A stretch of 64,000 nucleotides of DNA from Candidatus Binatia bacterium (GCA_963667495.1 OY763426.1:4878927-4942926); one strand, 5' to 3'. Shown: positions 6,572 to 36,130, counted from the stretch's first letter. The notes: generated by a model not told the origin, from the letters alone. A program made the numbers and translations.

Positions 6572-7044
6572 GCTGTGACAATTTTCACGGGGGAAGTTTC
6601 CCCCACGCCCCCTCGGACCAGGGTAAAAGTCGGCACATAGCGTTCGTCCCCCTCGGGGTCCCGCCCGACCGCAGACGGGCAGAGGCGGACAGTGCATCCC
6701 CGCTCAACCTGGGTAGGCTCCGTTTCAACTAGTCGCGTGAAGATGCGCAGCCCTTCGACCAAGACTACGGCAAAAATCAACGGACGCGGAAAGCCCGGCG
6801 GGACGCCGGCATCTTGGATGGTATAGGCGTGGATCGCCCCCCGGCTCGGCAGTTCAACCCAGTCGAGCCGATCCGAGAGACATTCCGGACAGACTACACG
6901 CGGTGGCCAGTGGCGCAGGGCACACGGCGGACAAAATGTTGTGAGCAGCTTTTGCGATCGCAGGGCTTCGTAAAACGGAGCCAGTCGGGTGTTCTGACTG
7001 CCCTGGAGTGGAAAGGGATCGACGGCGCGGAAATACTCGCTCAT
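6568..7044 (-). CDS. DUF35 OB-fold / C4 zinc-ribbon protein (thiolase partner, BbsA/ChsH2-C-like)
   Basis: CPPC...CPEC zinc ribbon followed by an OB-fold region. It sits directly downstream of the thiolase with a GGGAG SD. Confidence 0.7.
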   Translation of the reverse strand: MSEYFRAVDPFPLQGSQNTRLAPFYEALRSQKLLTTFCPPCALRHWPPRVVCPECLSDRLDWVELPSRGAIHAYTIQDAGVPPGFPRPLIFAVVLVEGLRIFTRLVETEPTQVERGCTVRLCPSAVGRDPEGDERYVPTFTLVRGGVGETSPVKIVTA

Positions 7045-7050
7045 GGGCTA

Positions 7051-8214
7051 CTACTCCCGCCCGTAAATCATAACCACATGCTCGCCCATGCCACTATTAT
7101 TATGCGTCAGTCCGATATGTGCCTCCGGGACTTGGCGCTCGCCGGCCTCCCCGCGTAGTTGCCAAAAGGCTTCGACCCCCTGAGCCACCCCCGTGGCCCC
7201 AAGCGGATGTCCGCAGCCCATCAGTCCACCGCGCGGATTAACAACCACGTCACCGCCATAATCGGACCGTCCTTCCGCAGCGAACGGACCGCCTTCGCCC
7301 TTAGAACAGAATCCAAGCTCTTCATAGGCAATAATCTCGGCGATGGCAAAACAATCGTGAACCTCGGCAAAATCGACCCCGCTCGCCGGTATCCCGGCCA
7401 TGGCATAGGCGTCCCCGGCGGCCTGTTTCATAGCCGGCCAACTGGCATAATCCGGGTCTAGGCTAGAGACAGAAAACCCGTGGACTGCCTGTCCGGTTCC
7501 GCGGATAAAGACGGGCTTATCCGTTATATCCCTGGCTCGCTCTTCGCTCGCCAGAATAACGGCCGCAGCACCATCGGTGATAGGCGAACACATAAACAGC
7601 CGGAGCGGAGATGCGATCATGCGCGAGCACACAACGGCGTCCAAGGTGACCCCGTTCTGAAAATGGGCGTACGGATTATTGCTTGAATGTGTATGGTTTT
7701 TCACCGCCACCTGAGCCAGTTGCTCTTCTGTTGTGCCGTATTCAGCCATATGCAGTTGGGCAGCCAGGGCAAAGGAAGGCGGGGCGGTGAGTCCAAAACA
7801 GGCTTCCCAGTCTCGGTCCACCCCAGCCCCCATATTCAGCACGGCCTCACCCATATTGGGGAGATTGAGCTTCTCGACCCCCAGCACCATGACGACATCG
7901 GCCAGACCGGCGGCAATAAACGCGTAGGCATAGCGTATCCCTGCCGTGCCACTGGCACACATATGTTCGGTCCGGGCCGAGAGCTTGCTTGGTTGAATGC
8001 CCAGCGTTTCCGCGGCAAGCGGAGCAATATGACTTTGAAAGGCCGCCCGCTCAGGCAGGACAGCACCGACGACCAGCCCTTCGATATCCTTGGGTGTCAG
8101 GGGCGGAACAGAAGCAAAGCAGGCCCGGCCAGCCTCGGCCAGCAATTCCCGAAAGCCGGCTGCGCGCACCCCAAAGCGCGACAGTCCCGCCCCAACCAGG
8201 GCAACCCGACGCAT
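7051..8214 (-). CDS. Thiolase-like protein (SCP-x / non-decarboxylating thiolase family)
   Basis: MRRVALVGAGLSRFG...CASGTAG (active-site Cys region) ...GCGHPLGATG (C-terminal thiolase motif). Start at the ATG at 8214, which has AAGGAG upstream. Confidence 0.8.
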   Translation of the reverse strand: MRRVALVGAGLSRFGVRAAGFRELLAEAGRACFASVPPLTPKDIEGLVVGAVLPERAAFQSHIAPLAAETLGIQPSKLSARTEHMCASGTAGIRYAYAFIAAGLADVVMVLGVEKLNLPNMGEAVLNMGAGVDRDWEACFGLTAPPSFALAAQLHMAEYGTTEEQLAQVAVKNHTHSSNNPYAHFQNGVTLDAVVCSRMIASPLRLFMCSPITDGAAAVILASEERARDITDKPVFIRGTGQAVHGFSVSSLDPDYASWPAMKQAAGDAYAMAGIPASGVDFAEVHDCFAIAEIIAYEELGFCSKGEGGPFAAEGRSDYGGDVVVNPRGGLMGCGHPLGATGVAQGVEAFWQLRGEAGERQVPEAHIGLTHNNSGMGEHVVMIYGRE

Positions 8215-8299
8215 ATACAACTCCTTTTTGTCTGAGACAGCCCTACCTAATCAAGAATTCTGTTTGCTGAAAAGGCGCTGCTGCTTCCTGGAAACAGTC

Positions 8300-10192
8300 T
8301 TACTCTTGAGGAGAAGCCACTGGCATCGCGCTCAGACGGTCACGAGTCTGTTTGGCCATGTCCGTCTTACCAGTCTTTTCATACAGCCGAGCGAGGTGTT
8401 CAAGCGTCTCGCGGGTCATCGAGCTGTTCGCGGGCAGGGCCTTCTCTTGGATCTGGACCGCTCGCTCTGTGAGCGACACGGCCGCTTCATTTTTTCCTTG
8501 CTCGGCATAGAACGTCGCCTGGGTGCGGAGATTCAGTGCGACGTTCGGATGATCCGCACCAAGCGACGCTTCCATAACGGAAGCAGCCTGCTCGTATATG
8601 GGTAAGAACGTCGCATAATCCTTGGTGTCCTGGAGGAGGTCGGCGATGCCGCTCAGTGTCGTGGCCAGATTATTCAGACTGACCGCAATATCACGCTGCC
8701 CAGGCTCCAACGCCTTGGTCTCAACCGCCAGAGCTTCTTCGTAATACAGCTGAGATGCAGTGAGGTCCCCGGCATCTTTCAGGAACAGCGCAAACTGATT
8801 CAGGCTCGTAGCAATATTCGGATGATCCTCACCCAGCGCGGTCTTCATGACCTGTACGGACCGTTCAAACAGCGGCCGGGCGGTCTCAAAGTTGCCGTTC
8901 TGATGGTGCAGAGAAGCCAGGTTATTCAGACTGACCGCAACATTGGGATGAACGCTGCCGTAGACCGTCTCGGTAATCTGAAGCGCCCGCTCGTACAAAG
9001 GCAACGGGCGGACGCTATCCCCTCCCTCGCGCAGGGCCAAGGCCATATTGTTCAGATTCATGGCCACAACCGGGTGGTCTTTGCCCAGCGCTTGTTCGTT
9101 GATCGCAATCACGCGCTCATAGACCGCTGCGGCCTCAGCGTAGTTCCGGACCTGGTACAAGAGAGAGGCCAGGTTGTTCAGGCTAGTCCCGACGTCAGGA
9201 TGCGTCAGACCATAGGCAGTGGTATAGATCTCGGCAGCCCGCTCAAACATGGGCCGTGCTGTGGCAAATTCTCCTATTTGATATAACGCCGATCCGAGAT
9301 TGTTGAGACTCGCAGCCACATCGGGATGTGACGGGCCAAGCGCAGCCTCTCGGATGTCGAGCGCACGTTGCTGCAATGCCCGTGCCTCGGCATAGTCCCC
9401 CATTTCCTTCAAGAGTAGACCCAACCGAGTCAGGTCGTCAGCTACAACAGGGTGCCGAGCACCGTGCGTGCTCTCATGGATAGAGAGCGCACTCTGGAGC
9501 AAGGTTCGCGCACCGTTATAATTCTTCGTCGCCATAAAAAGCTCGCCCAGATTAATCATGCTGAGGGCGACAGCTGGATGGTCACCACCCAGTTGCTGTT
9601 GGTGGATCGCCAACGCCCGTTCAAAAAGCGGACGGGCTTTCTCGTATTGCCTTTGCTCTTTGTACAGGATTGCCAGGTTGCCGACGCTCACGGCAACCGC
9701 GGCATGCGACTGCCCATAGGCGGCCTCTGTAATGCTCAGGGCCCGCTCGAACAGCGGACGGGCAGCCTCAAACTGCTGCTGGTCCTGGAGCACCAGGGCG
9801 AGATTGCTCAGACTGCGGACAATGCCGGGATGATCGCTCCCCAGTTCCTTCTCATCAATGCCCAGCGCCCGTTCGAAGAGCTGACGAGCTTCCGTGTATT
9901 GACGAGTCTGCTGAAGGAGGAGGGCGAGGTTATTGAGGCTTTGAGAGACGAGCGGATGATCGGGGCCGGCAACCTTTTCCGTCTGCTCAAGGAGCTCGCG
10001 CGCAACGGGGACGGCGGCCTGAAATTTTCCAGCCGCGTGTAAACGTCCGGCCTCTTCGGCTAATTGCTTGAGGCGGGTACCCGGCGCTTCGTCCGTACCA
10101 AAAGCAAACGGCGCAAAACAGAGTACGGCAACGGAAACGGCGACGCTGAGGATTCGGCTGGGACTATTCACTACAGGTGAGAGCCGAGACAT
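8300..10192 (-). CDS. Secreted tetratricopeptide-repeat protein (about 14 TPR units)
   Basis: Signal peptide MSRLSP...CFAPFAFG. Repeats of the form SLNNLAxLYxxxGxYxxAxPLxERALxIxExxLGxDHPxVA (TPR_10/12-like). Confidence 0.8.
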   Translation of the reverse strand: MSRLSPVVNSPSRILSVAVSVAVLCFAPFAFGTDEAPGTRLKQLAEEAGRLHAAGKFQAAVPVARELLEQTEKVAGPDHPLVSQSLNNLALLLQQTRQYTEARQLFERALGIDEKELGSDHPGIVRSLSNLALVLQDQQQFEAARPLFERALSITEAAYGQSHAAVAVSVGNLAILYKEQRQYEKARPLFERALAIHQQQLGGDHPAVALSMINLGELFMATKNYNGARTLLQSALSIHESTHGARHPVVADDLTRLGLLLKEMGDYAEARALQQRALDIREAALGPSHPDVAASLNNLGSALYQIGEFATARPMFERAAEIYTTAYGLTHPDVGTSLNNLASLLYQVRNYAEAAAVYERVIAINEQALGKDHPVVAMNLNNMALALREGGDSVRPLPLYERALQITETVYGSVHPNVAVSLNNLASLHHQNGNFETARPLFERSVQVMKTALGEDHPNIATSLNQFALFLKDAGDLTASQLYYEEALAVETKALEPGQRDIAVSLNNLATTLSGIADLLQDTKDYATFLPIYEQAASVMEASLGADHPNVALNLRTQATFYAEQGKNEAAVSLTERAVQIQEKALPANSSMTRETLEHLARLYEKTGKTDMAKQTRDRLSAMPVASPQE

Positions 10193-10225
10193 GAAGGCGG
10201 GTTCACAGCCCTACGAGACAGCAGA

Positions 10226-10717
10226 CTATTCCGTCTGCGTCATCTGATCAGGAGGGACAGAAACGACGTCTTCAGAGGGCTTATGAAAAGTTTCCGCTAC
10301 GTCAAAGGAACCGCGCAGTGAATACACGTCATCTTTGAACATGGGTAAGTGAGAATAGTAGGCACGATGGTAATAGCAGCCCAGGCCCTCACCCGGCGCT
10401 GCGGTTTCCTCCTCGACAATAGTGTCGGAAATTGTAGCGCTTCCGCTCTCTATCGAGGGGGGTGTCTTGACTGACGCGATATCAGGCTGTGCAGCCTGTT
10501 CAGCGTGACTTTTTTCAGTCAGCGTATCAGCATCATCCTTCCGGGTCGGTGTCGGCGGTCGGTGAGACGGATTTTCAAATTTGTCGAGCCAGCCGTAATA
10601 CGCGGAAGCCTTGGGTGCCGTTGGTTGCGGCTCTCCTTCTGCCCGGAGATCGCTGGCGATCAACACAATGCCAAGACTCAGAACGATAGTCAGGATGTGT
10701 TTCATACTGAAGCCCAT
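10226..10717 (-). CDS. Small secreted hypothetical protein sharing a motif with the adjacent DUF1329
   Basis: Signal peptide MKHILTIVLSLGIVLIASDLRA. The C-terminal GCYYHRAYYSHLPMFKDDVY parallels GTFYHKAYHSQMAMFPDNNY in the DUF1329 protein. Confidence 0.45.
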   Translation of the reverse strand: MGFSMKHILTIVLSLGIVLIASDLRAEGEPQPTAPKASAYYGWLDKFENPSHRPPTPTRKDDADTLTEKSHAEQAAQPDIASVKTPPSIESGSATISDTIVEEETAAPGEGLGCYYHRAYYSHLPMFKDDVYSLRGSFDVAETFHKPSEDVVSVPPDQMTQTE

Positions 10718-10806
10718 GTTCTCACCGTTCAGCGTTCTTATTGTAAGCCGCAACGTACAAGGGGAGCAGCTAGGCTGCTCCCCTCGGAGATGTCTTCTGA
10801 GGCTGC

Positions 10807-12249
10807 TTAGCGGTGCAGCTCGGTCAGACGGTTGAGGTCGTACAGGCCGTTAATGAAATCCATCGAAAAGTCAGGCAGACCACCGCCGTATTCACGCCAC
10901 AGGTTGCCGCGACCGTTCTGGATGTCGACCGTGTCCACGTTCCGCCAGTGAATCGCGCCACGATTGGCGTTCATGAACGTATACTTCTTGGAGTCGTCAG
11001 CCCACTGGTAGCCCCACTGCCACAGCTTCCACAGCTTTCCTTTCCGGTCGAAAGCGACGTGGTTCCAGGTTTCCCAGGTTTCCGGGTCGATCGCCATGAT
11101 GGCGCTCTTATACGGATGACGCGGGTCTTTCGGGATACGTTCCACCACGAACAGCTCGCGGATCTGCCACACATCCATATTGAGCCAGCCATCCGGTCCA
11201 CCATACCGCACACCATCATCATCCCACTTGGTTTTGGCGTGAACGGTCAGGAATTTCTTCTTGCCCCAGAACTTCCAGTCCCACTCAAGCGGACGACCCG
11301 AGAAGCCGTAGAAGTCTTCCAGCGTATGCTCAGTCCCCATCAGCGAGTCGGACTTCACCTCAGCCGAAATCCGGCGAACACGGCGCAGACTGGGAACATA
11401 GGCCCAACCATCATCGGTCCGACGGGGGTCGATATAACGCTGGATGATGAACGCGGTGCCCCGCACGTCGTACGGCTCGAAGAAACCGGTGAACTCTTTC
11501 CAGTGCACGGTTCCGGCGTCATCGTTTTCGGGCAAGTTATAATTGTTGTCCGGAAACATGGCCATCTGGGAGTGATACGCCTTATGATAGAAGGTTCCCA
11601 AGCTGCGCTCGTAGGTCCCGCCACCGCCATAGATCTCTTCCGTGTTATATTCCCAGTCGGTGTCGAGATCGATCTCGTCACCAATCCAGGCATCGGGCGG
11701 CTTGGTCGGCTCGGGGGCGGTATGCGTTCCGCCAAAGCGCAGCCACGTGGTCAACGCATTGGCCACGAAATATCCGCGCCAGTAAAAGCGTTTGTCATAG
11801 TTCCAGGCGACCTTGAGGCCCGCGATGCTGTCGTCGCCTTCACTCATAATGTCGTCGTTGGCAAACGGGTAGCCACAGACGTAGTTCTCAAGCGCGCCGT
11901 CAGCGGACAGCGCAACCTGCTTCTGGAACTTCTCGTCGCACTCCAAAACCGTCTGGTGCGCCTTCACGTGATAGGTTTCTACCACTTCCATACTGAGTGA
12001 GCCGTCGTTCCACTTCTCATACTGCTCGAAGTAACCGGGGAACATAAACGGCTTCACCTTGGGCAAGTCCGCATGGGTGAGGACATCGCCGGCTTTGAAC
12101 TCCGGCTCAACATCCTTGGATTGACTGAACCATTGGACAAAGGTGTCATGCGTATACTGCGTGGGGTCACCACTCTGGGCCCACACGCTGGTCTGTGCCC
12201 ACAACAGGCTACAGGCCGCGAGAAACGAAATCGCTGTGAGTCGTTTCAT
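10807..12249 (-). CDS. DUF1329 family protein (LolA-like, periplasmic/outer membrane associated)
   Basis: Signal peptide MKRLTAISFLAACSLLWAQ with GAGGAGGA SD. Length and blocks (ADGALENYVCGYPFA, VPSLRRVRR, LEDFYGFSGRPLEWDWKF) match DUF1329. Partner of DUF1302. Confidence 0.75.
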   Translation of the reverse strand: MKRLTAISFLAACSLLWAQTSVWAQSGDPTQYTHDTFVQWFSQSKDVEPEFKAGDVLTHADLPKVKPFMFPGYFEQYEKWNDGSLSMEVVETYHVKAHQTVLECDEKFQKQVALSADGALENYVCGYPFANDDIMSEGDDSIAGLKVAWNYDKRFYWRGYFVANALTTWLRFGGTHTAPEPTKPPDAWIGDEIDLDTDWEYNTEEIYGGGGTYERSLGTFYHKAYHSQMAMFPDNNYNLPENDDAGTVHWKEFTGFFEPYDVRGTAFIIQRYIDPRRTDDGWAYVPSLRRVRRISAEVKSDSLMGTEHTLEDFYGFSGRPLEWDWKFWGKKKFLTVHAKTKWDDDGVRYGGPDGWLNMDVWQIRELFVVERIPKDPRHPYKSAIMAIDPETWETWNHVAFDRKGKLWKLWQWGYQWADDSKKYTFMNANRGAIHWRNVDTVDIQNGRGNLWREYGGGLPDFSMDFINGLYDLNRLTELHR

Positions 12250-12278
12250 AAATCCTCCTCTAAGAAAATTCACCGCTC

Positions 12279-12308
12279 TATTTTTGGTTGCCGTTTTTGG
12301 GAAGTCAA
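12279..12308 (-). promoter_or_regulatory. Candidate internal promoter upstream of the DUF1329 gene
   Basis: The minus-strand TTGACT-N17-AAAAAT sits about 20 nt upstream of the GAGGAGGA SD, just downstream of the CCCTCCCCC-GCAA-GGGGGGAGG hairpin at about 12372-12393. Confidence 0.25.
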
Positions 12309-12401
12309 TAATACCTCAGCAGGTATTTTTCTAATTTTAGCCAGAACGAAGGGAGCAGCCCTCCATCCTGACCCTCCCCCGCAAGGGGGGAGGAAGGGTT
12401 A

Positions 12402-14546
12402 CTAGAAACGATAGCGCAGTCGGCTCCAGAATTCGTTCATCTTATTCCGCTCCGAGCCACCGGCCTGCATGTGGAACAGGCCGAAACCGGCTTCCGTATA
12501 CGGGTTGTTCGGGTCGCCCGTAAAAGCGCCGAACGCGCCGAGATCGTGTTTATGCCGTCCACCCAGAAACGCGGTGAAACCGAGCGTAACCGACCAGTTA
12601 TTGGTGATCAGATACTCGATATTACCGCCGGTCGTGCCGTCCTGGGCCGCGGTGCCGAACGCGCCAAAGACCAGGTAGACCAGTTGGTCGCGCATGAAGT
12701 GATTCTGCGCGAACACGGTGAAGATGAAGTTGTTGTTCTCGGCGGTGATGCCGCGGCGGCCGGCCCTCACATCGGGAAAGTGGGTTCCGTACGCCTGGGC
12801 GCTCAGGAAGAAGCTCCGCGTCGGGTTGAGCCAACGGATCAGGGTCGGCCGGTCAATCCCCAACACCCACTTGAAGGAGTTGCCGTCCCCGATCAGATCG
12901 ACCTTGGTCGTGTCGTTCAGCATCACGTTAGCGCTCCAGGACGATTCCCAGCGGAACACAAGGCCGGTGTACGGCTCGAACCAGTCGAGCGACAGGCCCA
13001 GCGTGTTGGTCTTGCGGTATCTGGCGGACAGCGAGCCGCCGAAGGTGCAGTGGTTGTGATATTCGGCGTGGCGGAATTTCTTCTTGGTGCCGTATGACGA
13101 CCCACCTTCTTTGAAGAGGGCTGCTTGCCTGACCTGGATCTGCTTCGGCTTGACGCCGACTATGACTGGACCAAGGCCGCCTGTGTTATTAACAACGGTG
13201 CCACCGTCCTTGGCGGTAATACCGACACCCGGCGCTTCATTCCGGTCCGCGGGCAGAATGCTGTTCCCGTTTCCGTCTGTCGTACACTCTGGCCGATTAG
13301 AGACGTTAAGGCGGTCCCAGCCGGTCGCGGGCAAGTCGGCAAACGCGAAATAGTCGGTGACCTGGATACGCAGGTTGCCGGCTGTGGCTTCCCAGCGCAT
13401 CCCTATGCCGCCGTTCTTCAGATTCCAGTGAGGAGCCCGGTTTTTGTACAGTGCCATGTTCTTGAACGGGAGATAGGGCCTATCTTCCGTTGCCATAGTC
13501 GGGTCGTCGGCCGTGCCGGGGAAAAGGGCGGTTGCAAACAGATCGTTCCCGAACACGAAGCCGTCTATCGTCCGTCCGAAGCCCGTGGCCCAGGGTTGGG
13601 CCGGGTGACCGAGACCGGTCGGCGTGTGGCGGTCGAAGACATACACGACACCACCGGCCACATCGCGCAGTGGGCCGATGTTGCCGAAGCGATGCTCGAA
13701 CAGGGCCGACCACAACGGCACGCGCGTATCGTCGAACAGATCAATGAAGAAGTGGTCGCCGAAGTCGACCGGGTTCACGATGTCTTGCAGGCGGAAGAAG
13801 TCGGCCTTCCCCCACACGTGCTGCTGCTTCCCGATACGCAGCCAGTTGCGACCGCCGAGGCCCTTCCAGAAGAAGTCGAAATACGCCTCGCGGACGGGAT
13901 AGTACAGGTCCATATTGGTCTCGCGGGTCATACCGAAGCGCAGGTCGTTCTGGCTGGCGTCCAGGCCGTAGTAGCCTCTGCTACGCGAATCGATATCGCG
14001 ACCGGCTACTCCGTACTTCGAGCCGGGGACCAGAGCGTGCATGAACTCGACGTTGCCCCCTGCCCCACCTTCCTTTGGCCAGAATCCGGCGTAGTTACCA
14101 GGATTAAGCCCAAAGGCCTGGAGGAATCCGGCATTGGCCGGTTTGGGATAACCGGAACGCCCAGAGACGAAGCGCTTGCCCTCGCCTTTCCGACCGTTTC
14201 CGAACTTGTCGTCTATGTCGTAGATCGACTCGTACTGAGGCCGCAGTTCGATGAAATACTCGAAGCGGTCAAAGTAGTCCTGCATTGCGTACAGGGGACC
14301 GGCCAACTGCACGCTGGCCCGGTAGCGGGACGACGCGACGTGATAGTCGGTCTTGAAGGTATTGTTCCGTAGAATGGAGAAGTTGTCCACGTAGCCGTGG
14401 ATGGCCATTCTATCGAAACTATCCAGGAGTCCTTTGTCTCCGCGCCCTGCCGCATCCACAGATGGAATAGCGAGCGCCATACTCAGACCAATGGCTGTTA
14501 TAGTCAGCCAGAGTCCGGCCAGCTTCCCTCTCCCTGCTCGTTTCAT
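12402..14546 (-). CDS. DUF1302 family outer-membrane protein
   Basis: Signal peptide MKRAGRGKLAGLWLTITAIGLSMALA. About 700 aa, alternating beta-strand-like composition, and a C-terminal ...RLRYRF (terminal Phe typical of OM barrels). Confidence 0.75.
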   Translation of the reverse strand: MKRAGRGKLAGLWLTITAIGLSMALAIPSVDAAGRGDKGLLDSFDRMAIHGYVDNFSILRNNTFKTDYHVASSRYRASVQLAGPLYAMQDYFDRFEYFIELRPQYESIYDIDDKFGNGRKGEGKRFVSGRSGYPKPANAGFLQAFGLNPGNYAGFWPKEGGAGGNVEFMHALVPGSKYGVAGRDIDSRSRGYYGLDASQNDLRFGMTRETNMDLYYPVREAYFDFFWKGLGGRNWLRIGKQQHVWGKADFFRLQDIVNPVDFGDHFFIDLFDDTRVPLWSALFEHRFGNIGPLRDVAGGVVYVFDRHTPTGLGHPAQPWATGFGRTIDGFVFGNDLFATALFPGTADDPTMATEDRPYLPFKNMALYKNRAPHWNLKNGGIGMRWEATAGNLRIQVTDYFAFADLPATGWDRLNVSNRPECTTDGNGNSILPADRNEAPGVGITAKDGGTVVNNTGGLGPVIVGVKPKQIQVRQAALFKEGGSSYGTKKKFRHAEYHNHCTFGGSLSARYRKTNTLGLSLDWFEPYTGLVFRWESSWSANVMLNDTTKVDLIGDGNSFKWVLGIDRPTLIRWLNPTRSFFLSAQAYGTHFPDVRAGRRGITAENNNFIFTVFAQNHFMRDQLVYLVFGAFGTAAQDGTTGGNIEYLITNNWSVTLGFTAFLGGRHKHDLGAFGAFTGDPNNPYTEAGFGLFHMQAGGSERNKMNEFWSRLRYRF

Positions 14547-14641
14547 AACGAGGTCTCCTTCCTTGCCCCTCGCCCTCACGAAGGGAAAATCTTTACTACC
14601 CCCAGAGGGGCCATTTGTCACAACAATCCCTCAAACTTTTA

Positions 14642-17065
14642 TCAGCTCGTTGGTTGCGGGCTCGGCTCCGCCATCATTGGCTGTTCTTCCTCAACCTGCA
14701 CAGGCTGCCCAACCACAAACTTCGGCTTCACAATCGCAATCATGGCCGGAATCATAGTCAGTGCCGACAACCAGTGTGTCACCAGCAGAATGGCCAATAA
14801 CAGGGCCATCTCCGCAGAGAAGCGCAAACTCGACAGAAAATACCACGGAATCACCCCGGCAATCATCGTCGTAGCGGTAAAGGTCACAGCCATACCCGTT
14901 GTTGATACCGTTTTTTTGATTCCTGCAATCAGGTCGCCCCCGGCCCGTGGGACTTCGAGTCGAATCCGGTCAACGACATATAAGATGTAGTCCACCCCAA
15001 TACCCATCCCCACCGCGGTCACCGGCAACGAATTGATATTAATGCCGATGCCCATAAAGGAGACGTACATATAACTGGCCACCCCCGCGGCAACGAGCGC
15101 GAGCATCACCAAGGTTGCCGCAATCAGAGAACCGTAGCTCAAAAGGACAAGGGTGTAAACGGTCATAATGACGAGCATGGCGGCCTGCTTCTCGGATCGA
15201 TCAATTTCCTCATTCAGTGCAGCCGTCGTACCGATAAATCCGCCGGCCAGGCGCAGACTTACCCCTTCAATAGGATGTTCGGCCATGAATTTCTTCGCCC
15301 TGGCGATTGCCTCGCGAACGGTATCGCCTTTCACGTCTTTGTAAAACACGACAAACTGGCCATTCTTGTAGACCATATCGGTGTACTCAAGAATAACACC
15401 CGATATAGGAGCTGAGGCTTCATACACGAAAATCAAATTTCCAGTGATAGATCTATCAGGCGGAATGACCTGCCAGCGTGGGTCGCCATAATGATAGCGG
15501 CGGTTCAAATTACGCGCCAAAGTGTACAGCTCGCGCGTGTCCCCCGCCTCAACCTGCTCCAACAGATAGCGGCGCATTTCCTCAAGGGTATCGAGCACAT
15601 GCGGCTCTTTGAGGATATGTTCCCGCTCGCCTTCCAGATAGATCACCAGTTGATTGGCCCCGGCAAATCGCTCGTTAATCGTCCGTGCGGACACATTGTA
15701 ATGGGCATCCTGCCACAGCAGCGGAGAGCCAGCTTCCTGTTCCCCAATCGGCACCGTAATCGCGGTCCGTACGCCAAAAAAGATGGTCACCGCGGCAACA
15801 ACCATAATCACCCAGCGGCTGGTTGCCCCGGTGGCGATATTGCCGACCGTGGTCAGTGTGACCTCCATCCAACGCGGAATAAAATGTTCCGTTGTCTTTG
15901 GGGTCGGGAAATACGATAACAGGATGGGCATGGTATGCGTAATGCAGAAAATATTGGCGAAGGCCCAGAAACTCCCGTAATAGGCCAGCTTTTCGATCAG
16001 AGGAATGGTGGCAACGGACAGGACCAGAATCCCACCGGCATCGCTGATGACACCCGTCACACCCGGCAGAAACAAGTCACTCAGACACGTAAAGGCCGCT
16101 TTCTCCTGGTCTTTTGAGACTTCGAGTTCTTCGAAATAGCGCTCAATCATCTGCACCGCGTGGCTGACCGAGCGAGCCGTGATCAGCAGCGGGATCACCA
16201 GGATGAGCGGGTCCAGATTAAAGCCCCACCAGCCGACCCAGCCCAAGCCCCATACCGTCTGGATGGCTGCGCCAATCAATGGGACGAGCACCCCGTAGGC
16301 CCGCCGAAAATAGATAATCAGCGCAAGAAAGACCATTATTCCGGTGAAGGAGAAGATCATGAACAGCTCACCGGTGAAAAACCACACCCAGCCTTTGAGG
16401 GCCGGCTCGCCAGCGACGTACACTTTTGTATTGTCGTCTTCTATTTCACTCCGGATGCGCGTGATTTCCCGTTGAATCTCCCGGTAATCCAACCGATCTT
16501 CGTTAAATCCGGCCAGAACGAGTGCGGCTTTGCCGTCCTCTGAGACGTATTTGTTCATAACGATATCGTTATTGAACATCTCGAACTTCAGCGCGCTGAG
16601 CTCATTGGGATCGTCCGGTATGTCAACGGGAAGCACCGGATACGAACGCACCATGCCGCCAGGCAAGGTCTTGATGTTGCGGATTTTCACGTGGGAAAGC
16701 GAAGCCACCTGGTTATGGTCCACACCGTTGATCTGGTCGAGCTGGTCCGTAAGGTAACGAACATTTTCCAGGTTTCCTTGGGTGAAAATATCACCTTCCT
16801 CTACCTGGAGGACCGCCGTCACAATATTGGCCCCACCAAAGGTCGTCCGATGCTGGTTGTAAGCTTGGATATAGGAATGGCCTTGGGGCAGGAGGTCGGC
16901 AAACTGGCTATACATTTCGACCTTCCGCGCCTGATAGCCCCACATGGCCGTCGCTATTGCCAATAGCACGAGGTACGCAATACGGTGTCGCCAGAGAACT
17001 GCCAGATAGGCTTGAATAATACGGTCGGCGGTGCCTTTTGGTTGACCTGGGGGAGTATGGGCCAT
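14642..17065 (-). CDS. RND-superfamily exporter (MMPL / HpnN-like sterol-sensing-domain transporter)
   Basis: 807 aa with two blocks of about 6 TM helices separated by soluble loop domains. Starts 21 nt upstream of the DUF1302 gene. Confidence 0.8.
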   Translation of the reverse strand: MAHTPPGQPKGTADRIIQAYLAVLWRHRIAYLVLLAIATAMWGYQARKVEMYSQFADLLPQGHSYIQAYNQHRTTFGGANIVTAVLQVEEGDIFTQGNLENVRYLTDQLDQINGVDHNQVASLSHVKIRNIKTLPGGMVRSYPVLPVDIPDDPNELSALKFEMFNNDIVMNKYVSEDGKAALVLAGFNEDRLDYREIQREITRIRSEIEDDNTKVYVAGEPALKGWVWFFTGELFMIFSFTGIMVFLALIIYFRRAYGVLVPLIGAAIQTVWGLGWVGWWGFNLDPLILVIPLLITARSVSHAVQMIERYFEELEVSKDQEKAAFTCLSDLFLPGVTGVISDAGGILVLSVATIPLIEKLAYYGSFWAFANIFCITHTMPILLSYFPTPKTTEHFIPRWMEVTLTTVGNIATGATSRWVIMVVAAVTIFFGVRTAITVPIGEQEAGSPLLWQDAHYNVSARTINERFAGANQLVIYLEGEREHILKEPHVLDTLEEMRRYLLEQVEAGDTRELYTLARNLNRRYHYGDPRWQVIPPDRSITGNLIFVYEASAPISGVILEYTDMVYKNGQFVVFYKDVKGDTVREAIARAKKFMAEHPIEGVSLRLAGGFIGTTAALNEEIDRSEKQAAMLVIMTVYTLVLLSYGSLIAATLVMLALVAAGVASYMYVSFMGIGININSLPVTAVGMGIGVDYILYVVDRIRLEVPRAGGDLIAGIKKTVSTTGMAVTFTATTMIAGVIPWYFLSSLRFSAEMALLLAILLVTHWLSALTMIPAMIAIVKPKFVVGQPVQVEEEQPMMAEPSPQPTS

Positions 17066-17171
17066 GTTATTCCTCCTTACGCGAGCAGGGGCGTAATAGC
17101 GTGTGAGTAATGTGTCCTGTTTATAGGCATGTCAGTCATGACAGCGCCGTTGGGCTGATGGATATACACCC

Positions 17172-18407
17172 TTAGAGGGACGGGTTCGCGGCATAGAGCT
17201 TTGCCTTATCCGTGGTGGTCCAGCTCTTGCCACCGTCAGACGTGACCAGAACCGTGCCCTTTCCTCCACACGCAACGCCAAACTGTCCGTCAGATGCAAA
17301 AGACGCCGTGCGAATCCATGTCAGCACATGCTGACGGACATCGTCGTCAAGCTGCCAGGCATCGCTTGTGGCCGAGGCCATCGTGCCAAGGACGCCGGTC
17401 GCAAAGTCATTACGGTTCTCATTTGGAGCAGCAGTCACGGACAGGAGTGTGTTAAAACTTCCGCTTGGAATATTTGTCCACGTCTCCCCCGCATCTGTCG
17501 TTTGTAATAACGTGCCACTCTCCCCCGTGACATACCCCTCCTGGGCGTTCCGAAAATCTACATCAATCAGGAAGAGGTCTTCAATATAGAGAGGGGGGAT
17601 ACGCTGCCGGATCGCTTCCTCTTCGGAGAGTTCCGGGCGGGTGTATTTCGGCAGGTTGTGCACATTGCGTTGCCGCTGCCAGGTGACGCCACCATCCTGG
17701 GTGCGCAAGATAATTCCAAATTCGCCCGTGACCCACCCGTCCGTATTCGTGGGGAAGGACACACCGTTCAGCGTCACATCGCACGGATTCAGCCGCAGGG
17801 TTGACTCGGGATCATCCGCGGGGTCCGACGTTGCGAAATTATCGAAGCTCAAATCGCACCACAGCGAGAGATTTTCCCAGGTTTCTCCACCGTCTTGTGA
17901 ACGGATAACCGCGCCCACCGGACCGACCGCCCAAATATGTTGTGCGTCCGCACCACGGCTGACCGCAAAATAGTGCGGCTGGGCTACCTGCCAGTCTTGA
18001 AGGGGCAATTCGATAGGAATTTTATTCCAGGCTTTTCCGCCGTCGCTGGTCTTGAGGACGATCCCATCCTGTCCAACGGCAACCCCGTCCTGAGCAGTCG
18101 CAAAATCAATCTCGTAGATTGCCTTTTGGACTCCGGTCTCCAGCATGGCAAAATCTTGTCCGTTATTGGTCACATGCAGAATGAGCCCCCGTCCGCCGGC
18201 GACCCAGGCATTATTGGCGTCAAGGACAAAAGCGTCATAGAAATCTTCACGGTCGGGAAACACATTCCCCCTGGACGCTCCCATTTCGTTGAGTTCACGC
18301 AGCACCTCTTCGTCGGCTGCTTCAACACAAGCAGACAGCGTAAAGAGGGCGGCGGCCAGAATGCTCCAAGCCGCACGCCGCCACACCAAATGCATTTGTC
18401 TTTTCAA
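17172..18407 (-). CDS. Ycf48-like / BNR-repeat beta-propeller lipoprotein
   Basis: Lipobox LSAC after the signal peptide. Repeated DGGxTW / SxDGGxxW motifs (TSDGGKAWN, SQDGGETWE, TQDGGVTWQ, TTDAGETWT, TSDGGKSWT). Confidence 0.7.
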   Translation of the reverse strand: MKRQMHLVWRRAAWSILAAALFTLSACVEAADEEVLRELNEMGASRGNVFPDREDFYDAFVLDANNAWVAGGRGLILHVTNNGQDFAMLETGVQKAIYEIDFATAQDGVAVGQDGIVLKTSDGGKAWNKIPIELPLQDWQVAQPHYFAVSRGADAQHIWAVGPVGAVIRSQDGGETWENLSLWCDLSFDNFATSDPADDPESTLRLNPCDVTLNGVSFPTNTDGWVTGEFGIILRTQDGGVTWQRQRNVHNLPKYTRPELSEEEAIRQRIPPLYIEDLFLIDVDFRNAQEGYVTGESGTLLQTTDAGETWTNIPSGSFNTLLSVTAAPNENRNDFATGVLGTMASATSDAWQLDDDVRQHVLTWIRTASFASDGQFGVACGGKGTVLVTSDGGKSWTTTDKAKLYAANPSL

Positions 18408-18474
18408 GATTTTCTCTCCTTACTAAGGCCGGGGAAGTGTTGTCGTCAGTCAGACCCGGAGGTTAAGCACCCTT

Positions 18475-18502
18475 ACTTATGAAGTACGGACGGAACTGTC
18501 AA
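18475..18502 (-). promoter_or_regulatory. Candidate sigma70-type promoter for the Ycf48-like / RND / DUF1302 / DUF1329 operon
   Basis: Perfect TTGACA on the minus strand (reverse complement of tgtcaa at about 18497-18502), with an A/T-rich -10-like hexamer about 17 nt downstream. Lies in the 150 nt gap upstream of the 18407 start. Confidence 0.25.
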
Positions 18503-18559
18503 GGGACCCCTTAGGGCCGCTTCACCAGGATGATTGAAGCTGTTTCTGGTTCAATTTTT

Positions 18560-18967
18560 TTATTTATAGCGAATGGCCAAACCAACCAGTTGGAATTCGT
18601 AGTCTGCCCGGCTTCGATAGTCTCGGGCAGTACTCGCCCCGACATGGGCCACTGTTATTTCGTCCTGGAACTCTCCGGCTTTCATCCGCTGCAGGACAAT
18701 GGCCTCTGCCCCTATCGCACACGCCTCACGGTGCAGTGCAGTCTGCATGGCTTCCATGCCCGTACCCGGATTGCCATACGTTTTCACGCGGGCGATCACC
18801 TCGTGGGCTGACGCGGGAGGAGAATCAAGAATAGGAATCGTGCAATTCGTCGTCGTGAATTCGACCGGAATCGCCCCTATCTGTTCAGTCAAAACCAGCG
18901 GTTTTGTCGGGCGACTCGCGCATCCGGTCAGGGCACAACCGACCAGAATCGTCAAAAGAATTTTCAA
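18560..18967 (-). CDS. Small lipoprotein, hypothetical
   Basis: MKILLTILVGCALTGCAS lipobox. 135 aa. A weak RcsF-like impression only. Confidence 0.45.
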   Translation of the reverse strand: MKILLTILVGCALTGCASRPTKPLVLTEQIGAIPVEFTTTNCTIPILDSPPASAHEVIARVKTYGNPGTGMEAMQTALHREACAIGAEAIVLQRMKAGEFQDEITVAHVGASTARDYRSRADYEFQLVGLAIRYK

Positions 18968-19166
18968 GGCTTTTCCGAACAGGACCCCTCGGGTCCTTGC
19001 ATCCTCTACAAAACTAACGGTCTCCTATAGCATACTCGGAAGCATTACTCTACATTTTTTGGCCACGTGCTGTCAAACTATGTTATATTATTACCCCTTC
19101 CTCTCGCGTATAGGGCAGGTGCCGCGGGCGGAAGCATAGAACCGGAAGGGCGAGGAGATTCTTCGT

Positions 19167-20189
19167 ATGGCACAAGTCAGGCCGTTAAAATGGGGTGTTC
19201 TCTTTAATGGAGATAAGCTGACCCTCGATCATATTGTCCGCTTTGCCACGCAAGCGGAAGACGCTGGGGCGGAGAGCATTTGGGCTGCGGAGCTGTGGCG
19301 GGATGCCTTTGTGCCCCTGACTGCCATAGCCAGTGCGGTCCGGACCGTCCGCCTCGGGACGGCAGTCGCCCATTTTGCTCGTCCTCCCATGTTGACCGAG
19401 TTAAGCACAATGTCCCTCGCCGAGTATACCCAAGGGCGTTTCATTTTGGGGCTTGGGACTGCACCGAAAGACTGGAACGAGCAGTGGCACGGCCTGGAAT
19501 ACCGCAAACCCGTTGCTCGGATGCGTGAATATGTCGAGTGTATTCGTACCATGTGGCAGGGCTCACCAACGCGGGCAGTCCAGTACAGCGGAGAATTTTA
19601 TCAAGTTCGCAATTATCAACGCCTTACGGAGCCGGCCCATCCCAGCGTCCCTATTTATCTGGCCGCGGTTCTGCCCAATATGATCCAGCTCTCCGGTGCC
19701 CTGGCCGACGGCATTATCCTCAACGTGCTCAATACGCCTCAATATTTTACGGATATCGTCCATCCAAATCTGAAAAAGGGCTTCAGCCGCAGCGGGCGAG
19801 ACAGAAACGGCTTCGAGATTTGCGCCGTGAAATGCTGCGCGGTGCATACCAACCGTCAGCAGGCACGCGATTTGGCCAGACATGCCGTCGCCTTTTATGC
19901 CACCCTGCCCTATTTCGATGTGATTCTTGACCCCCCAGGCTTTACGCAGGCCAAGCTCGCCATCCGAGACGCGATGAGACGGAATGACGTTGCGGCCATG
20001 CTTGCGGCCGTGAGCGACGATATGATTGATGCCCTGGTCTTAGCCGGGACACCCGATGATGTCCGGCAACAGCTCGCTGCGTTTGACGGTTTGTTTGATA
20101 CGCTGCTCTTGCTCAGCCCTTCTTTTGCCGCCGACCCGGAAGAGGTGCGTCGCAATAACGCCGCAATGATTGCCGCCTTTGCCGAATGA
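19167..20189 (+). CDS. Luciferase-like monooxygenase (LLM class, F420/flavin-dependent oxidoreductase)
   Basis: MAQVRPLKWGVLFNG...AEDAGAESIWAAELW...LGLGTAP. TIM-barrel LLM blocks throughout. Confidence 0.8.
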   Translation: MAQVRPLKWGVLFNGDKLTLDHIVRFATQAEDAGAESIWAAELWRDAFVPLTAIASAVRTVRLGTAVAHFARPPMLTELSTMSLAEYTQGRFILGLGTAPKDWNEQWHGLEYRKPVARMREYVECIRTMWQGSPTRAVQYSGEFYQVRNYQRLTEPAHPSVPIYLAAVLPNMIQLSGALADGIILNVLNTPQYFTDIVHPNLKKGFSRSGRDRNGFEICAVKCCAVHTNRQQARDLARHAVAFYATLPYFDVILDPPGFTQAKLAIRDAMRRNDVAAMLAAVSDDMIDALVLAGTPDDVRQQLAAFDGLFDTLLLLSPSFAADPEEVRRNNAAMIAAFAE

Positions 20190-20227
20190 CGCTATGGAGA
20201 GAGGACACATTGCATGGAGGAGTCACT

Positions 20228-21382
20228 ATGAATACGCAGTTACAACACGACCTGCTCCCGACAGCCACCCACGATGAGTTGGCGCGGCAAAATTTTGTCC
20301 AAAGCCTCAAGGTCCATCTGGCAACCAAAGTCTCGCCCGGTAATAAGGCTATTTACGAGCACAAGGCGGCTCCCCGCTTTGCGCGTGAGCATCAGCGTCC
20401 TCCCCAAGATCGGCACGAAGTCCGCAGCGTCATGCAGGACGAACCCTATTACCAGATGTGGAGCACGCTGCTGCGGACCAGCCAGGAAATGATGTGGGAT
20501 GCGGTCAATGTGAGCGTGGAACGCCAGCTCCCACAGCTACGGGAGCGCGCTGCCACAAACGGAAAGACGCTCGGCTCTCTCACTCTGAATCCGGACTTAG
20601 CCATTCCAGCCTACCACACAGCCGTAGACATTCACTGTCAGCCGGGTGGCTATCATACCGAGTTGGAGCAGGACGACGTAGCCGCCGGAGCGACCTATGA
20701 CCGGGCCGTCTATATTTACGCCATGAGCCGCTTAGGCAGCCTGAACGATGAAATGGGTCAGTCGGTGATGCTGCACCTCAAAGAGCAGCATGCGGACTTC
20801 CGGCCCGCTCGCATCCTGGATATGGGTTGCACCGTCGGGCATAGCACCCTGCCCTATGTTGACGCCTATCCCGAAGCCGAAGTCTTTGCCATTGACGTGG
20901 GCGCACCCGTCCTGCGCTATGCCCATGCACGCGCCGAGGCACTGGGCAAGCGCGTCCATTTTTCTCAGCAGAATGCGGAGCGGACCAATTTCGAGGCGGG
21001 CTCGTTTGACCTTATCGTCTCTCATATTTTGCTGCACGAGACTTCGAGTCAGGCCATTCGCAATATCATGAAAGAGTGCCACCGCTTGTTGCGGCCGGGG
21101 GGCATGATGCTCCACCAAGAGGTGCCGCAATATGAAGGCATGCCACCCTACGAGGCATTTATTCTTGACTGGGACACCTATAACAACAACGAACCCTTCT
21201 GGGGAACGGTGCATTCCATGGACCTCCAAAAGCTGGCCGAAGAGTCCGGTTTTGCCGCACGGGGTGTCATCCAGACGATGATCCCGAGTGCCCTGGAACG
21301 TGCCCAGGCCCGTACCGAGAAATTCCAGGGGGGCGATTTCGGCGGCGGCGGGGCGTGGTTCGTCTTTGGCGCGACCAAATAG
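20228..21382 (+). CDS. Class I SAM-dependent methyltransferase
   Basis: Motif I ILDMGCTVGHST, motif post-I EVFAIDV, FDLIVSHILLHE. Start set at MNTQLQHD. Confidence 0.7.
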   Translation: MNTQLQHDLLPTATHDELARQNFVQSLKVHLATKVSPGNKAIYEHKAAPRFAREHQRPPQDRHEVRSVMQDEPYYQMWSTLLRTSQEMMWDAVNVSVERQLPQLRERAATNGKTLGSLTLNPDLAIPAYHTAVDIHCQPGGYHTELEQDDVAAGATYDRAVYIYAMSRLGSLNDEMGQSVMLHLKEQHADFRPARILDMGCTVGHSTLPYVDAYPEAEVFAIDVGAPVLRYAHARAEALGKRVHFSQQNAERTNFEAGSFDLIVSHILLHETSSQAIRNIMKECHRLLRPGGMMLHQEVPQYEGMPPYEAFILDWDTYNNNEPFWGTVHSMDLQKLAEESGFAARGVIQTMIPSALERAQARTEKFQGGDFGGGGAWFVFGATK

Positions 21383-23859: not shown

Positions 23860-23861
23860 AG

Positions 23862-24761
23862 ATGAATAATATCTTGAAACGTTTGCAGACGGTTCTTGGA
23901 TCAACGGAATCCTGTCAAGTTCCAGGCTGCGGGAATCCCGTGAACCAGAGAGGACACAAACTGTGCTACAGCCACTATAAGCAGAGAAGGTCCAACACGC
24001 CCGTCGAAAAAAATGGAAGGAGCACCAGGAAGGCCCCACACTCATCCCCTGTGCGGGCATCTAGCCGCAGGAGCGATACGGAGATGCTCACCGCCTCAAA
24101 GCTCGGCAAGGCCCTAGACATACCCAGCGCTCAGGTCAACTTACTCCTGGCCGAGTTGGGCTGGGTCGAGAAGTCCACCGAGGGTTGGAAAGTCACCAGC
24201 CAGGGCGAAAGGCAGGGCGGACGAACCCGAACATTCAAACAGAACGGCACCCCCTATGCTATTTGGCCAGACAGACTGCTCCAGAGCAAAGTTTTTCTCG
24301 CCGCGGTGAACGAGTTCGGCAAAGAGACTTACAAAAAGACTTACAAAGAGACTGCGGAATCTATCGCGGGTCCGCCCGTCGTCGCCGAAAAGCCACACGT
24401 CGCGGACCTCCGCACTCGCTTTCCTGCCAAATATCGAGCCGCCGACGGACATTACGTCCGCTCGCGTGCGGAGCTATCTATTGATAATTGGCTCTACATG
24501 CATGCCATCGTCCACGCCTACGAGCGGAAATTGCCCGTCGAGGAGGATGCCTACTATGACTTCTATCTGCCTCAGGGCAAAGTATATATTGAGTACTGGG
24601 GAATGGAAAAGGACCCGGCTTACGCACAGCGAAAGAAAGAGAAGCAAGTAATCTACGCTCGGTATGGCCTGAACTTGGTCGAGTTGGCGGACGCCGAACT
24701 CGAGAACCTTGACGACAACCTGGCACGGCTCCTGCTCCCCTTCGGCGTTGACTGTACCTGA
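23862..24761 (+). CDS. Zinc-finger plus wHTH-like plus PD-(D/E)XK nuclease-like protein, inserted between hyuA and hyuB
   Basis: Starts 3 nt after the hyuA stop. N-terminal C-x-VPGCG-x9-LCYSHY (HNH-associated zinc-ribbon pattern). C-terminal SRAEL...DFYLPQGKVYIEYWG...KQVIYARYGLNLVEL resembles Vsr/DUF559/DUF2726-type restriction-endonuclease-fold motifs. Confidence 0.5.
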   Translation: MNNILKRLQTVLGSTESCQVPGCGNPVNQRGHKLCYSHYKQRRSNTPVEKNGRSTRKAPHSSPVRASSRRSDTEMLTASKLGKALDIPSAQVNLLLAELGWVEKSTEGWKVTSQGERQGGRTRTFKQNGTPYAIWPDRLLQSKVFLAAVNEFGKETYKKTYKETAESIAGPPVVAEKPHVADLRTRFPAKYRAADGHYVRSRAELSIDNWLYMHAIVHAYERKLPVEEDAYYDFYLPQGKVYIEYWGMEKDPAYAQRKKEKQVIYARYGLNLVELADAELENLDDNLARLLLPFGVDCT

Positions 24762-24836
24762 CGAAACTCCAATGCGCCGGTTAAGAGCTGAATTAGCCTG
24801 ACTGATTCGACCACAAGTATAATCGAGGGAGAATCA

Positions 24837-25040
24837 ATGAACACACAGTTGACCATGGTGTATTGGAAGTCGGATACATTCTGGCTGGGCAAACTCCTCG
24901 AACATCCCGAAATCATGACTCAGGGCGAGACGCTGGAAGAATTGGAAGAAAATCTTAAAGATGCTTACTTGCTGATGGCCATGGATGACGTTCCAGAGGA
25001 CTACCGGATGAAAACAATTCGCTGTGAAGTCCGGACATGA
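24837..25040 (+). CDS. hicB: HicB-family antitoxin
   Basis: WLGKLLEHPEIMTQGETLEELEENLKDAYLLM fits the HicB_lk_antitox pattern. Overlaps hicA by ATGA. Confidence 0.6.
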   Translation: MNTQLTMVYWKSDTFWLGKLLEHPEIMTQGETLEELEENLKDAYLLMAMDDVPEDYRMKTIRCEVRT

Positions 25041-25228: not shown

Positions 25229-25290
25229 CGTGCTGTAGGCGTAGGTCTCGTTGCCCTTCGCTCATCCGACCTATGTAGAGGAGCAGTGTT

Positions 25291-35552: not shown

Positions 35553-35578
35553 GACTCAGGCCCTCGCCTTAGGGGACT

Positions 35579-35776: not shown

Positions 35777-35777
35777 A

Positions 35778-36053: not shown

Positions 36054-36067
36054 GATCCTTGGTCTTA

Positions 36068-36106: not shown

Positions 36107-36130
36107 ATAAACACACTCAACCTCATCTCC

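Follow-up and report, generated by a model that had tools for sequence, protein, structure and literature searches.

We describe here a cluster of seven co-oriented genes at positions 8300-18967 of the minus strand in a 64,000-nucleotide stretch of DNA from a Candidatus Binatia bacterium; the whole stretch is called the window below. Open reading frame (ORF) calls in the window and hidden Markov model (HMM) searches identified, in this order, a small lipoprotein, a Ycf48/BNR-like beta-propeller lipoprotein, a resistance-nodulation-division (RND) permease, a DUF1302 protein, a DUF1329 protein, a small exported protein and an exported tetratricopeptide-repeat (TPR) protein (Table 1). The four central genes are an AmeABCD-type tetrapartite RND cassette, a divergent member of a known and partly characterised kind, and the small exported protein carries a segment homologous to the DUF1329 protein of the same cluster. 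On balance, and by a modest degree, we favour the reading that this Binatia cluster is a tetrapartite HAE3-type RND system that relays hydrophobic cargo outward through the periplasm with the participation of accessory proteins.

The order of the seven genes is a general feature of Binatia. Loci were collected through homologues of the small ORF (n=9), through a DUF1329 alignment (n=30, one genome per species) and by scanning metagenomes with the most divergent small-ORF sequences as seeds (a further n=5). The 30 loci of the DUF1329 scan come nearly all from Candidatus Binatia (Binatota), many of them from complete chromosomes of 3.8-6 Mb that are metagenome-assembled genomes, and the lineage of the window is itself uncultured and known only from such genomes. 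In every Binatia locus that reaches far enough, with one exception described below, the order is lipoprotein, BNR, RND, DUF1302, DUF1329, small ORF and TPR, and the part from DUF1329 to the TPR gene was seen in about 42 Binatia loci. Identity to the window falls as low as 36% for the small ORF, 55% for the TPR protein, 71% for DUF1329 and 83% for the RND permease. Downstream of the TPR gene the content is variable, with a thiolase/DUF35/hydantoinase block in some loci and a SnoaL-like gene directly following in others. Since the genes past the TPR gene differ between loci, the seven-gene block is the conserved unit.

When we searched a plasmid database with DUF1329, eight distant matches were obtained and used as outgroup cassettes. 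Those of Aromatoleum EbN1 and Azoarcus KH32C hold the four core genes without the lipoprotein, the small ORF or the TPR gene, and the small ORF/TPR extension is thus specific to Binatia and not general to the family. A paralogous Binatia cluster (L041) contains only BNR, RND, DUF1302, HEAT and DUF1329 genes, and more distant DUF1329 genes are solo. An initial annotation of this DNA had raised the question whether the small ORF and the TPR gene accompany the cluster; they do in the loci counted above, and the extension that it described is fixed in Binatia but missing from the Aromatoleum and Azoarcus cassettes.

That annotation had read the four central genes, in tight spacing, as a BNR lipoprotein with an LSAC lipobox, an MMPL-type RND exporter, a DUF1302 protein ending in Phe and a LolA-like DUF1329 protein, and each of these assignments held: all four genes lie on the minus strand and HMM searches back all four families. 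The range it gave, 10226-18407, covers the core and the small ORF but omits both the TPR gene, which its title named, and the upstream lipoprotein gene. Most orthologues of the BNR protein have the lipobox LS[AG]C, one has LPSC, and the TTG start codon and Shine-Dalgarno sequence of the BNR gene, which adjoins the RND gene in the same orientation, are conserved among orthologues. Identity with the photosystem II assembly factor Ycf48/HCF136 was rejected because the score against the equivalog NF010237 (103.7 bits) is below the cut-off of 326, and no photosynthesis genes were found among the annotated ORFs of the window.

The RND permease scores 107 bits against PF03176, where the cut-off is 20.5, and its best NCBIfam match is TIGR00921 (HAE3; E 7e-33), which remains under the curated subfamily cut-off. 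Its match to ACR_tran is also under the cut-off (21.7 vs 28 bits), and a tripartite HAE1 pump of the AcrAB-TolC type was rejected because none of the seven proteins matches the HlyD/MFP or OEP families. The DUF1302 gene (ORF 12402-14621, likely start 14546) gives a weak match to PF06980, with 38.7 bits against a cut-off of 23.2; its product has a signal peptide and ends in ...RYRF, with the terminal Phe. The DUF1329 gene (ORF 10807-12273, likely start 12249) also matches LolA_like (PF17131, E 3e-18), and its AlphaFold2 model is confident, with a predicted local distance difference test score (pLDDT) of 92.9. Foldseek related this model to 9tp6, 3bk5 and 4z48 (DUF1329-family crystal structure), with a target-normalised TM-score of 0.79. 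The window copy of DUF1329 has a Cys in an 'AAC' sequence resembling a lipobox, but this residue is not conserved in orthologues and a lipoprotein assignment was rejected. Long ORFs on the opposite strand (e.g. 10813-12000) were discarded as shadow ORFs of a GC-rich coding region. In orthologue alignments, export signals are conserved in every partner except the RND permease: signal peptides are kept in DUF1302, DUF1329 and TPR orthologues, and lipoboxes in the small lipoprotein and the BNR protein.

Systems built from the same four families have been studied in other bacteria. In Castellaniella defragrans, AmeABCD was described by its authors as a tetrapartite HAE3 RND exporter whose proteins are induced on monoterpenes, and deletion of ameABCD decreased monoterpene tolerance and increased Nile Red accumulation (PMC6394551). 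The Binatia core resembles AmeABCD in its four families, adjacent and co-oriented amid genes of hydrophobic-compound metabolism, and in its LolA-like periplasmic partner. It differs in gene order (DUF1302-DUF1329-BNR-RND in AmeABCD, BNR-RND-DUF1302-DUF1329 in Binatia), in having a BNR protein that is a lipoprotein, in its highly divergent sequences and in the three extra conserved exported proteins. Transposon-site sequencing with random barcodes (RB-TnSeq) found the four genes cofit in Shewanella, Kangiella and Pseudomonas (10.1101/072470), and growth of P. putida on Tween 20 and on butyl stearate depends on them (10.1101/2020.07.04.188060). In AlphaFold co-folding, DUF1329 was placed both with the DUF1302 barrel and with the BNR/RND pair (PMC10866462), and later models gave DUF1302 an 18-stranded barrel and the DUF1302-DUF1329 pair an interface predicted TM-score (ipTM) of 0.84, there being no experimental DUF1302 structure (PMC13499233). 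For Pseudomonas putida PP_0765/PP_0766 and PP_2018/PP_2019 and for Shewanella Sama_1588-1591, which encode the same four families, cofitness and AlphaFold contacts support one machine (10.1101/072470; 10.1101/2020.07.04.188060; PMC10866462). The Pseudomonas genes are distributed over two loci with a LuxR-type regulator, and a lipoprotein, small ORF or TPR partner is not described there. In a benzene-degrading member of the Desulfobacterota the cluster is highly expressed (PMC13101534), and a DUF1329 deletion in Delftia impairs growth on phenanthrene, as far as that work is cited in PMC13101534. The Binatota themselves, a phylum without cultured members, have been described as methylotrophs and degraders of alkanes (PMC8262859). 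The cluster had been called uncharacterised in the initial annotation, which goes too far, since deletion and efflux data on the AmeABCD type, cofitness data and AlphaFold models have been published.

Another such cassette lies on plasmid 2 of Aromatoleum aromaticum EbN1 (YCF48-related, MMPL, DUF1302, DUF1329, NTF2), in which the core order is identical to that of Binatia and a SnoaL/NTF2 gene lies downstream, beside beta-oxidation genes. Identity between the two cassettes is 34% over the full length of the RND permease, 28% for DUF1329 and 30% for BNR, while DUF1302 is barely alignable, the Binatia DUF1302 being longer and more divergent than proteobacterial members. The NTF2/SnoaL gene directly follows DUF1329 in EbN1 (L046 9795-10193), and the SnoaL-like gene of Binatia follows the TPR gene. 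Because of this difference, it looks as if the small ORF and the TPR gene had been inserted between DUF1329 and an older neighbour. Lipid anchoring of the BNR protein appears to be a Binatia trait, since the Azoarcus homologue has a plain signal peptide in place of the lipobox.

The small ORF is a genuine gene. Its product has a signal peptide and no match in Pfam or NCBIfam, and 79 homologues were found, the best of them 93% identical; the exact window protein is absent from the protein collection searched, in which its close relatives are present. Since a profile search of 1.84 billion representative proteins gave only 24 clusters, the family is narrow and lineage-restricted. In its alignment, the signal peptide is followed by an invariant YYGW(L)D motif, a linker of variable sequence and, as the fourth part, a near-invariant C-terminal module (C-module). 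The C-module follows the pattern GxGLGCYYHRAYYSHLPMF..Y.L.GS.DV.E, whose residues are near-invariant though the sequences are only 36% identical overall, and in the window it contains LGCYYHRAYYSHLPMF. When we analysed the codons of 36 distinct sequences, the ratio of nonsynonymous to synonymous polymorphism (pN/pS) was 0.17 in the C-module, 0.32 in the N-terminal motif, 0.76 in the linker and 0.75 in the signal peptide, so that selection on this protein is focused on the two motif islands. In the AlphaFold2 model (pLDDT 53) the chain is disordered save for the signal-peptide helix and a short helix over the N-terminal motif.

The C-module is related to DUF1329, as the initial annotation had noticed from a shared motif in a secreted 163-residue ORF. 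Pairwise BLASTP gave E 2e-6, and profile-profile comparison by hhalign aligned the C-module with DUF1329 residues 217-258 at 96.7% probability (E 3.4e-10, 42 columns); given these two results, the common motif goes beyond chance. A distant small-ORF member (P0213) shares 55-61% identity with DUF1329 genes over 51 amino acids (aa), reaching into WKEFxGxF. The motif form LG[TC]FYH[RK]AY.S[HQ]LPMF was confined to the DUF1329 clade with about 51% identity or more to the window copy; it was found in 15 of the 117 relatives scanned, and a looser form in two more. A second DUF1329 gene in the window (29878-31302) has the generic motif form, and its match to the small ORF is not significant. The homology is specific to the DUF1329 of the cluster, and the small ORF is a derived fragment rather than a member of the DUF1329 (PF07044) family, the homologous segment being only 42-51 aa. 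In the DUF1329 model, the copied segment leads from a beta-strand (212-225) over a long loop (226-247) into the beginning of the next strand in the LolA-like sheet, and the motif is conserved more strictly in the small ORF than in DUF1329 itself. In addition, an HMM of the N-terminal island YYGWLDKFENP prefers the N-terminal helix of DUF1329 (WLxKY), which lies at an equal distance from the signal peptide. This island may be a second colinear remnant of DUF1329, which is suggestive only.

The two other accessory proteins are conserved as well. The lipoprotein gene is immediately upstream of the BNR gene in every locus long enough, and its 135-aa product has a conserved lipobox L-[TALIS]-G-C followed by the motif RPTKPLVLTEQ, which is conserved too. 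None of its 101 homologues has a Pfam domain, and no relatives of the protein were found in Pfam, NCBIfam or the PDB. The TPR gene always follows the small ORF and begins here 33 nt past its stop codon; its product, which carries a signal peptide, contains about 14 units, each of 42 aa and in register from residue 36 on, in agreement with the secreted 14-unit TPR protein initially annotated.

We then considered how the block is transcribed. A candidate promoter with a perfect TTGACA near 18500 had been noted before, and we located this hexamer at 18502-18497, where it is invariant in 24 of 25 aligned lipoprotein-BNR spacers while the surrounding DNA is fully diverged. A simple promoter scan did not call this site because its -10 element, TAAGTA, is weak; its invariance where the rest of the spacer is unalignable nevertheless supports a genuine promoter. 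The best consensus match of the region is a putative promoter at 19076-19047, whose form TTTGA(C/T)A...TAGAGT is conserved in the closer Binatia loci. At the 3' side of DUF1329, a stable hairpin occurs in the same position in all Binatia loci with differing sequences. With a direct script we found only three perfect hairpins in the window that have a stem of 9 bp or more, and all three lie just 3' of a gene. The other two (36070-36092 and 60273-60297) lie 3' of minus-strand genes and are both built on CCCTCTCCC/GGGAGAGGG, which suggests a recurring terminator type. An Rfam scan of 6000-19400 with an E limit of 0.1 gave no matches; the hairpin and the 5' regions therefore fall outside known RNA families. 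An internal promoter for the small ORF and the TPR gene was rejected, since the TACAAT past the hairpin has no -35 partner and is not conserved. Because the conserved hairpin splits DUF1329 from the small ORF, one should not assume that a single transcript runs through the block without a break; the core transcript likely ends or attenuates at the hairpin, and the small ORF and the TPR gene would then be expressed, as a closely linked pair, by read-through at a different level.

From the published phenotypes and models, together with the fold evidence of this analysis, we infer the following relay. A proton-driven RND permease in the inner membrane, paired with the lipid-anchored Ycf48-like beta-propeller, would pass a hydrophobic molecule on to DUF1329, a LolA-like carrier of the periplasm, and this carrier would dock on the DUF1302 outer-membrane barrel. 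Given the catabolic genes around the cluster, which include thiolase, DUF35, hydantoinase-type carboxylase and luciferase-like (LLM) oxidoreductase genes and an SDR gene, the direction is most likely outward, hydrophobic compounds being removed or delivered. We also favour it because export is what characterised RND pumps do and because the Ame data speak for efflux.

Such a relay would resemble the Lol pathway (LolCDE-LolA-LolB) in its succession of membrane extractor, LolA-like carrier and outer-membrane acceptor. The extractor here is an RND protein driven by the proton-motive force and not an ABC transporter, and the acceptor is a large beta-barrel and not LolB. Searches with Pfam and NCBIfam found neither an ABC transporter nor the LolB family in the cluster, and the Lol lipoprotein-sorting pathway itself was rejected, the likeness to LolA being limited to the fold of DUF1329. 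MmpL7/LppX is another relay whose carrier has a LolA-like fold. RseB/MucB appear in the Foldseek list as distant structural relatives of DUF1329, and their binding of RseA/MucA is a precedent, by analogy only, for a LolA-like fold recognising an unstructured periplasmic peptide; a sequence relationship and an anti-sigma factor context are both lacking here.

For the accessory proteins we propose that a partial copy of the cluster's own DUF1329 gave rise to the small protein, which retained, under very strong constraint, the strand-loop and possibly the N-terminal helix. We prefer the view that the retained strand-loop is a docking epitope, through which the small protein would occupy or bridge a site that DUF1329 also uses. 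TPR proteins are typical binders of extended peptides, and the TPR protein could hold the disordered chain, so that the pair would tune or scaffold the relay as a lineage-specific docking or regulatory accessory. That a DUF1329 epitope on a disordered tether, held by the TPR protein, scaffolds or tunes the hand-over is a tentative proposal to which we give rather little weight. Slightly more speculative is the elaborated form, in which the small protein is a carrier-derived interface mimic, with its docking strand-loop (perhaps also the N-terminal helix) on a tether and the TPR protein as a periplasm-spanning scaffold, gating or bridging the hand-over from the RND permease to the barrel. If it were true, the small protein would be a carrier-derived regulatory subunit, undescribed in the literature we searched on DUF1302/DUF1329 systems, and it would mark the functional docking surface of the whole DUF1329 family.

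Several observations weigh against the relay with its accessory pair. The direction of transport is disputed even in studied systems. One locus (L044) has the lipoprotein, the four core genes and a TPR gene whose product is 53% identical, without a small-ORF homologue, the 273-nt gap in its place (17990-18263) holding hairpins only; since the TPR gene is present there without the small ORF, the small protein is not indispensable. The evidence for co-occurrence all comes from one class, and shared ancestry hence explains the synteny in part. Because a conserved terminator-like hairpin follows DUF1329, expression of the small ORF and the TPR gene may differ from, or be separate from, that of the core. 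Finally, YYGWLDKFENP reached at most 4.7 bits against the DUF1329 helix, which is not significant beside a maximum of 3.7 for shuffled controls.

The main rival is import of hydrophobic growth substrates, in which DUF1302 would be the entry pore and DUF1329 an inward carrier, the RND/BNR pair would receive the cargo or energise its transfer, and the DUF1329 paralogues would be substrate-specific binding proteins. We consider this improbable but a serious contender, kept alive by the catabolic neighbourhood and by growth phenotypes. The cluster lies among catabolic genes, and solo DUF1329 paralogues lie beside catabolic and transporter genes both in the window (29878-31302) and in other loci (L040, L042). 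Against uptake, the RND pumps that have been characterised, HpnN of the HAE3 group and the MmpL proteins among them, carry their cargo outward. Growth data point the other way, since the P. putida mutants do not grow on Tween 20 or butyl stearate (10.1101/2020.07.04.188060) and the Delftia DUF1329 deletion grows more poorly on phenanthrene in the account cited in PMC13101534, a paper that also reports the high expression in benzene degraders. The ameABCD deletion cuts tolerance and raises dye accumulation, which indicates efflux (PMC6394551). An outward route could also serve an envelope lipid or pigment that the cell itself makes with the products of the conserved neighbours, in outer-membrane biogenesis like that of MmpL7/LppX or HpnN, which we hold to be distinctly less probable than uptake. 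In its favour, the F420-type LLM oxidoreductase/methyltransferase pair and the SnoaL, HEAT, hydrolase and VTT genes persist while the thiolase/hydantoinase block comes and goes, and an NTF2/SnoaL gene follows DUF1329 in Aromatoleum as well. Export of a cell-wall component was also proposed by Price et al. on pleiotropic phenotypes (10.1101/072470). The conserved block contains no lipid or polyketide synthase, however, and its neighbours suit catabolism equally. These neighbours may resemble the tailoring enzymes of phthiocerol dimycocerosate (PDIM).

By contrast with all of these readings, a bystander role of the small ORF and the TPR gene, the one being a decaying remnant of a DUF1329 duplication and the other unrelated and kept only vertically, is very unlikely. 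Such a view would accommodate the terminator-like hairpin between the pair and the core, the loss of the small ORF in one locus, the absence of both genes from the proteobacterial cassettes and the restriction of the evidence to one class. It is made unlikely by the selection pattern and the synteny: the C-module is constrained far more strongly than the linker (0.17 vs 0.76), with residues near-invariant at 36% overall identity; the motif is conserved more in the small ORF than in DUF1329; and the order is kept in about 42 loci despite gene insertions directly downstream. Both proteins also keep their export signals.

The DUF1302/DUF1329/BNR/RND system is widespread; it recurs in gene clusters by which hydrocarbons, terpenes, steroids and esters are broken down, and almost every Pseudomonas aeruginosa has it. 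The Binatia variant points to one strand-loop of DUF1329, of enough importance to be copied into a separate protein and conserved more tightly there, as a concrete site for mutation in tractable organisms. It also shows that the cassette can recruit extra periplasmic partners, and it adds an element of envelope transport to the picture of Binatia. The seven-gene form, above all its carrier-derived disordered protein, is new in that we did not find it described in the literature searched.

Table 1. Genes and sequence elements of the Binatia cluster (positions in the window).
Feature	Position	Strand	Evidence or remark
Promoter-like TTGACA-18-TAGAGT upstream of lipoprotein gene	19047..19076	-	10/12 consensus positions
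135-aa lipoprotein	18560..18967	-	Lineage-restricted family, no Pfam match; seventh conserved member, outside the initial annotation
Promoter-like TTGACA-17-TAAGTA upstream of BNR gene	18474..18502	-	Promoter of the initial annotation
Ycf48/BNR-like beta-propeller lipoprotein, AmeC/COG4447 counterpart	17172..18407	-	PF14870, E 7e-30
RND permease, MMPL/HAE3 type, AmeD counterpart	14642..17065	-	PF03176 MMPL, E 1e-30
DUF1302 outer-membrane beta-barrel (predicted), AmeA counterpart	12402..14546	-	PF06980; ~714 aa from likely ATG
DUF1329 LolA-like periplasmic protein, AmeB counterpart, 480 aa	10807..12249	-	PF07044, E 2.7e-35
DUF1329 segment LGTFYHKAYHSQMAMFPDNNYNLPENDDAGTVHWKEFTGFFE, copied in small ORF	11476..11601	-	hhalign to small-ORF C-module; translation checked
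Perfect 11-bp GC-rich hairpin	10760..10784	-	Directly 3' of DUF1329 stop codon
Small ORF, 163-aa exported, mostly disordered protein (predicted)	10226..10717	-	Islands YYGWLDKFENP and C-module conserved
Small-ORF C-module AAPGEGLGCYYHRAYYSHLPMFKDDVYSLRGSFDVAETFHKPSEDVVS, DUF1329-derived	10259..10402	-	BLASTP, hhalign, alignment
Exported TPR protein, 630 aa, TPR_10/TPR_12 type	8300..10192	-	TPR_12, E 3.5e-142

Some Binatia loci carry additional genes within or near the block. Four loci of one sublineage (L007, L008, L018 and L035) have extra small ORFs of 73-100 aa, with no family match, both in the RND-DUF1302 gap and in the gap from the small ORF to the TPR gene. In the paralogous cluster of L041, the HEAT-repeat protein between DUF1302 and DUF1329 (8793-9968) has no signal peptide and shares 29% identity with the HEAT protein encoded downstream of the main cluster. 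In a close relative (L001), a HEPN gene and a HicAB toxin-antitoxin pair lie at 18037-18744, between the hydantoinase block and the downstream luciferase-like gene.

With the genes that flank the block, the conserved neighbourhood comes to about 15 genes. Beside the cluster, a divergently transcribed F420-type luciferase-like oxidoreductase and a 398-aa methyltransferase (19167-21382, plus strand) occur in nearly all Binatia loci, and on the other side lie SnoaL-like, HEAT-repeat, alpha/beta-hydrolase and DedA/VTT genes. The window also has two hydantoinase A/B-type pairs, acetone/acetophenone carboxylase-like, at 2698-8220 (minus strand) and 21805-27180 (plus strand). One pair follows a thiolase and DUF35/ChsH2-type OB-fold pair, and the other is split by a 299-aa ORF without a family match (23862-24761); the first hydantoinase block is present in only some Binatia loci.

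Farther along the plus strand, the solo DUF1329 paralogue at 29878-31302 (PF07044, E 1e-43) is 35% identical to the cluster copy. It is adjoined by genes at 28600-29787 (plus strand) and 31310-32560 (minus strand), its neighbours being an MFS transporter and a family III CoA-transferase. For each RND/DUF1302 set there are several DUF1329 genes in Binatia genomes, a ratio that brings multiple substrate-binding proteins to mind. Genes at 32910-42518 (minus strand) encode a ResIII helicase, an N6/N4 DNA methylase, two pentapeptide-repeat proteins, a small TPR protein and a DDE transposase; they probably belong to a mobile or restriction/defence island that has no connection with the cluster.

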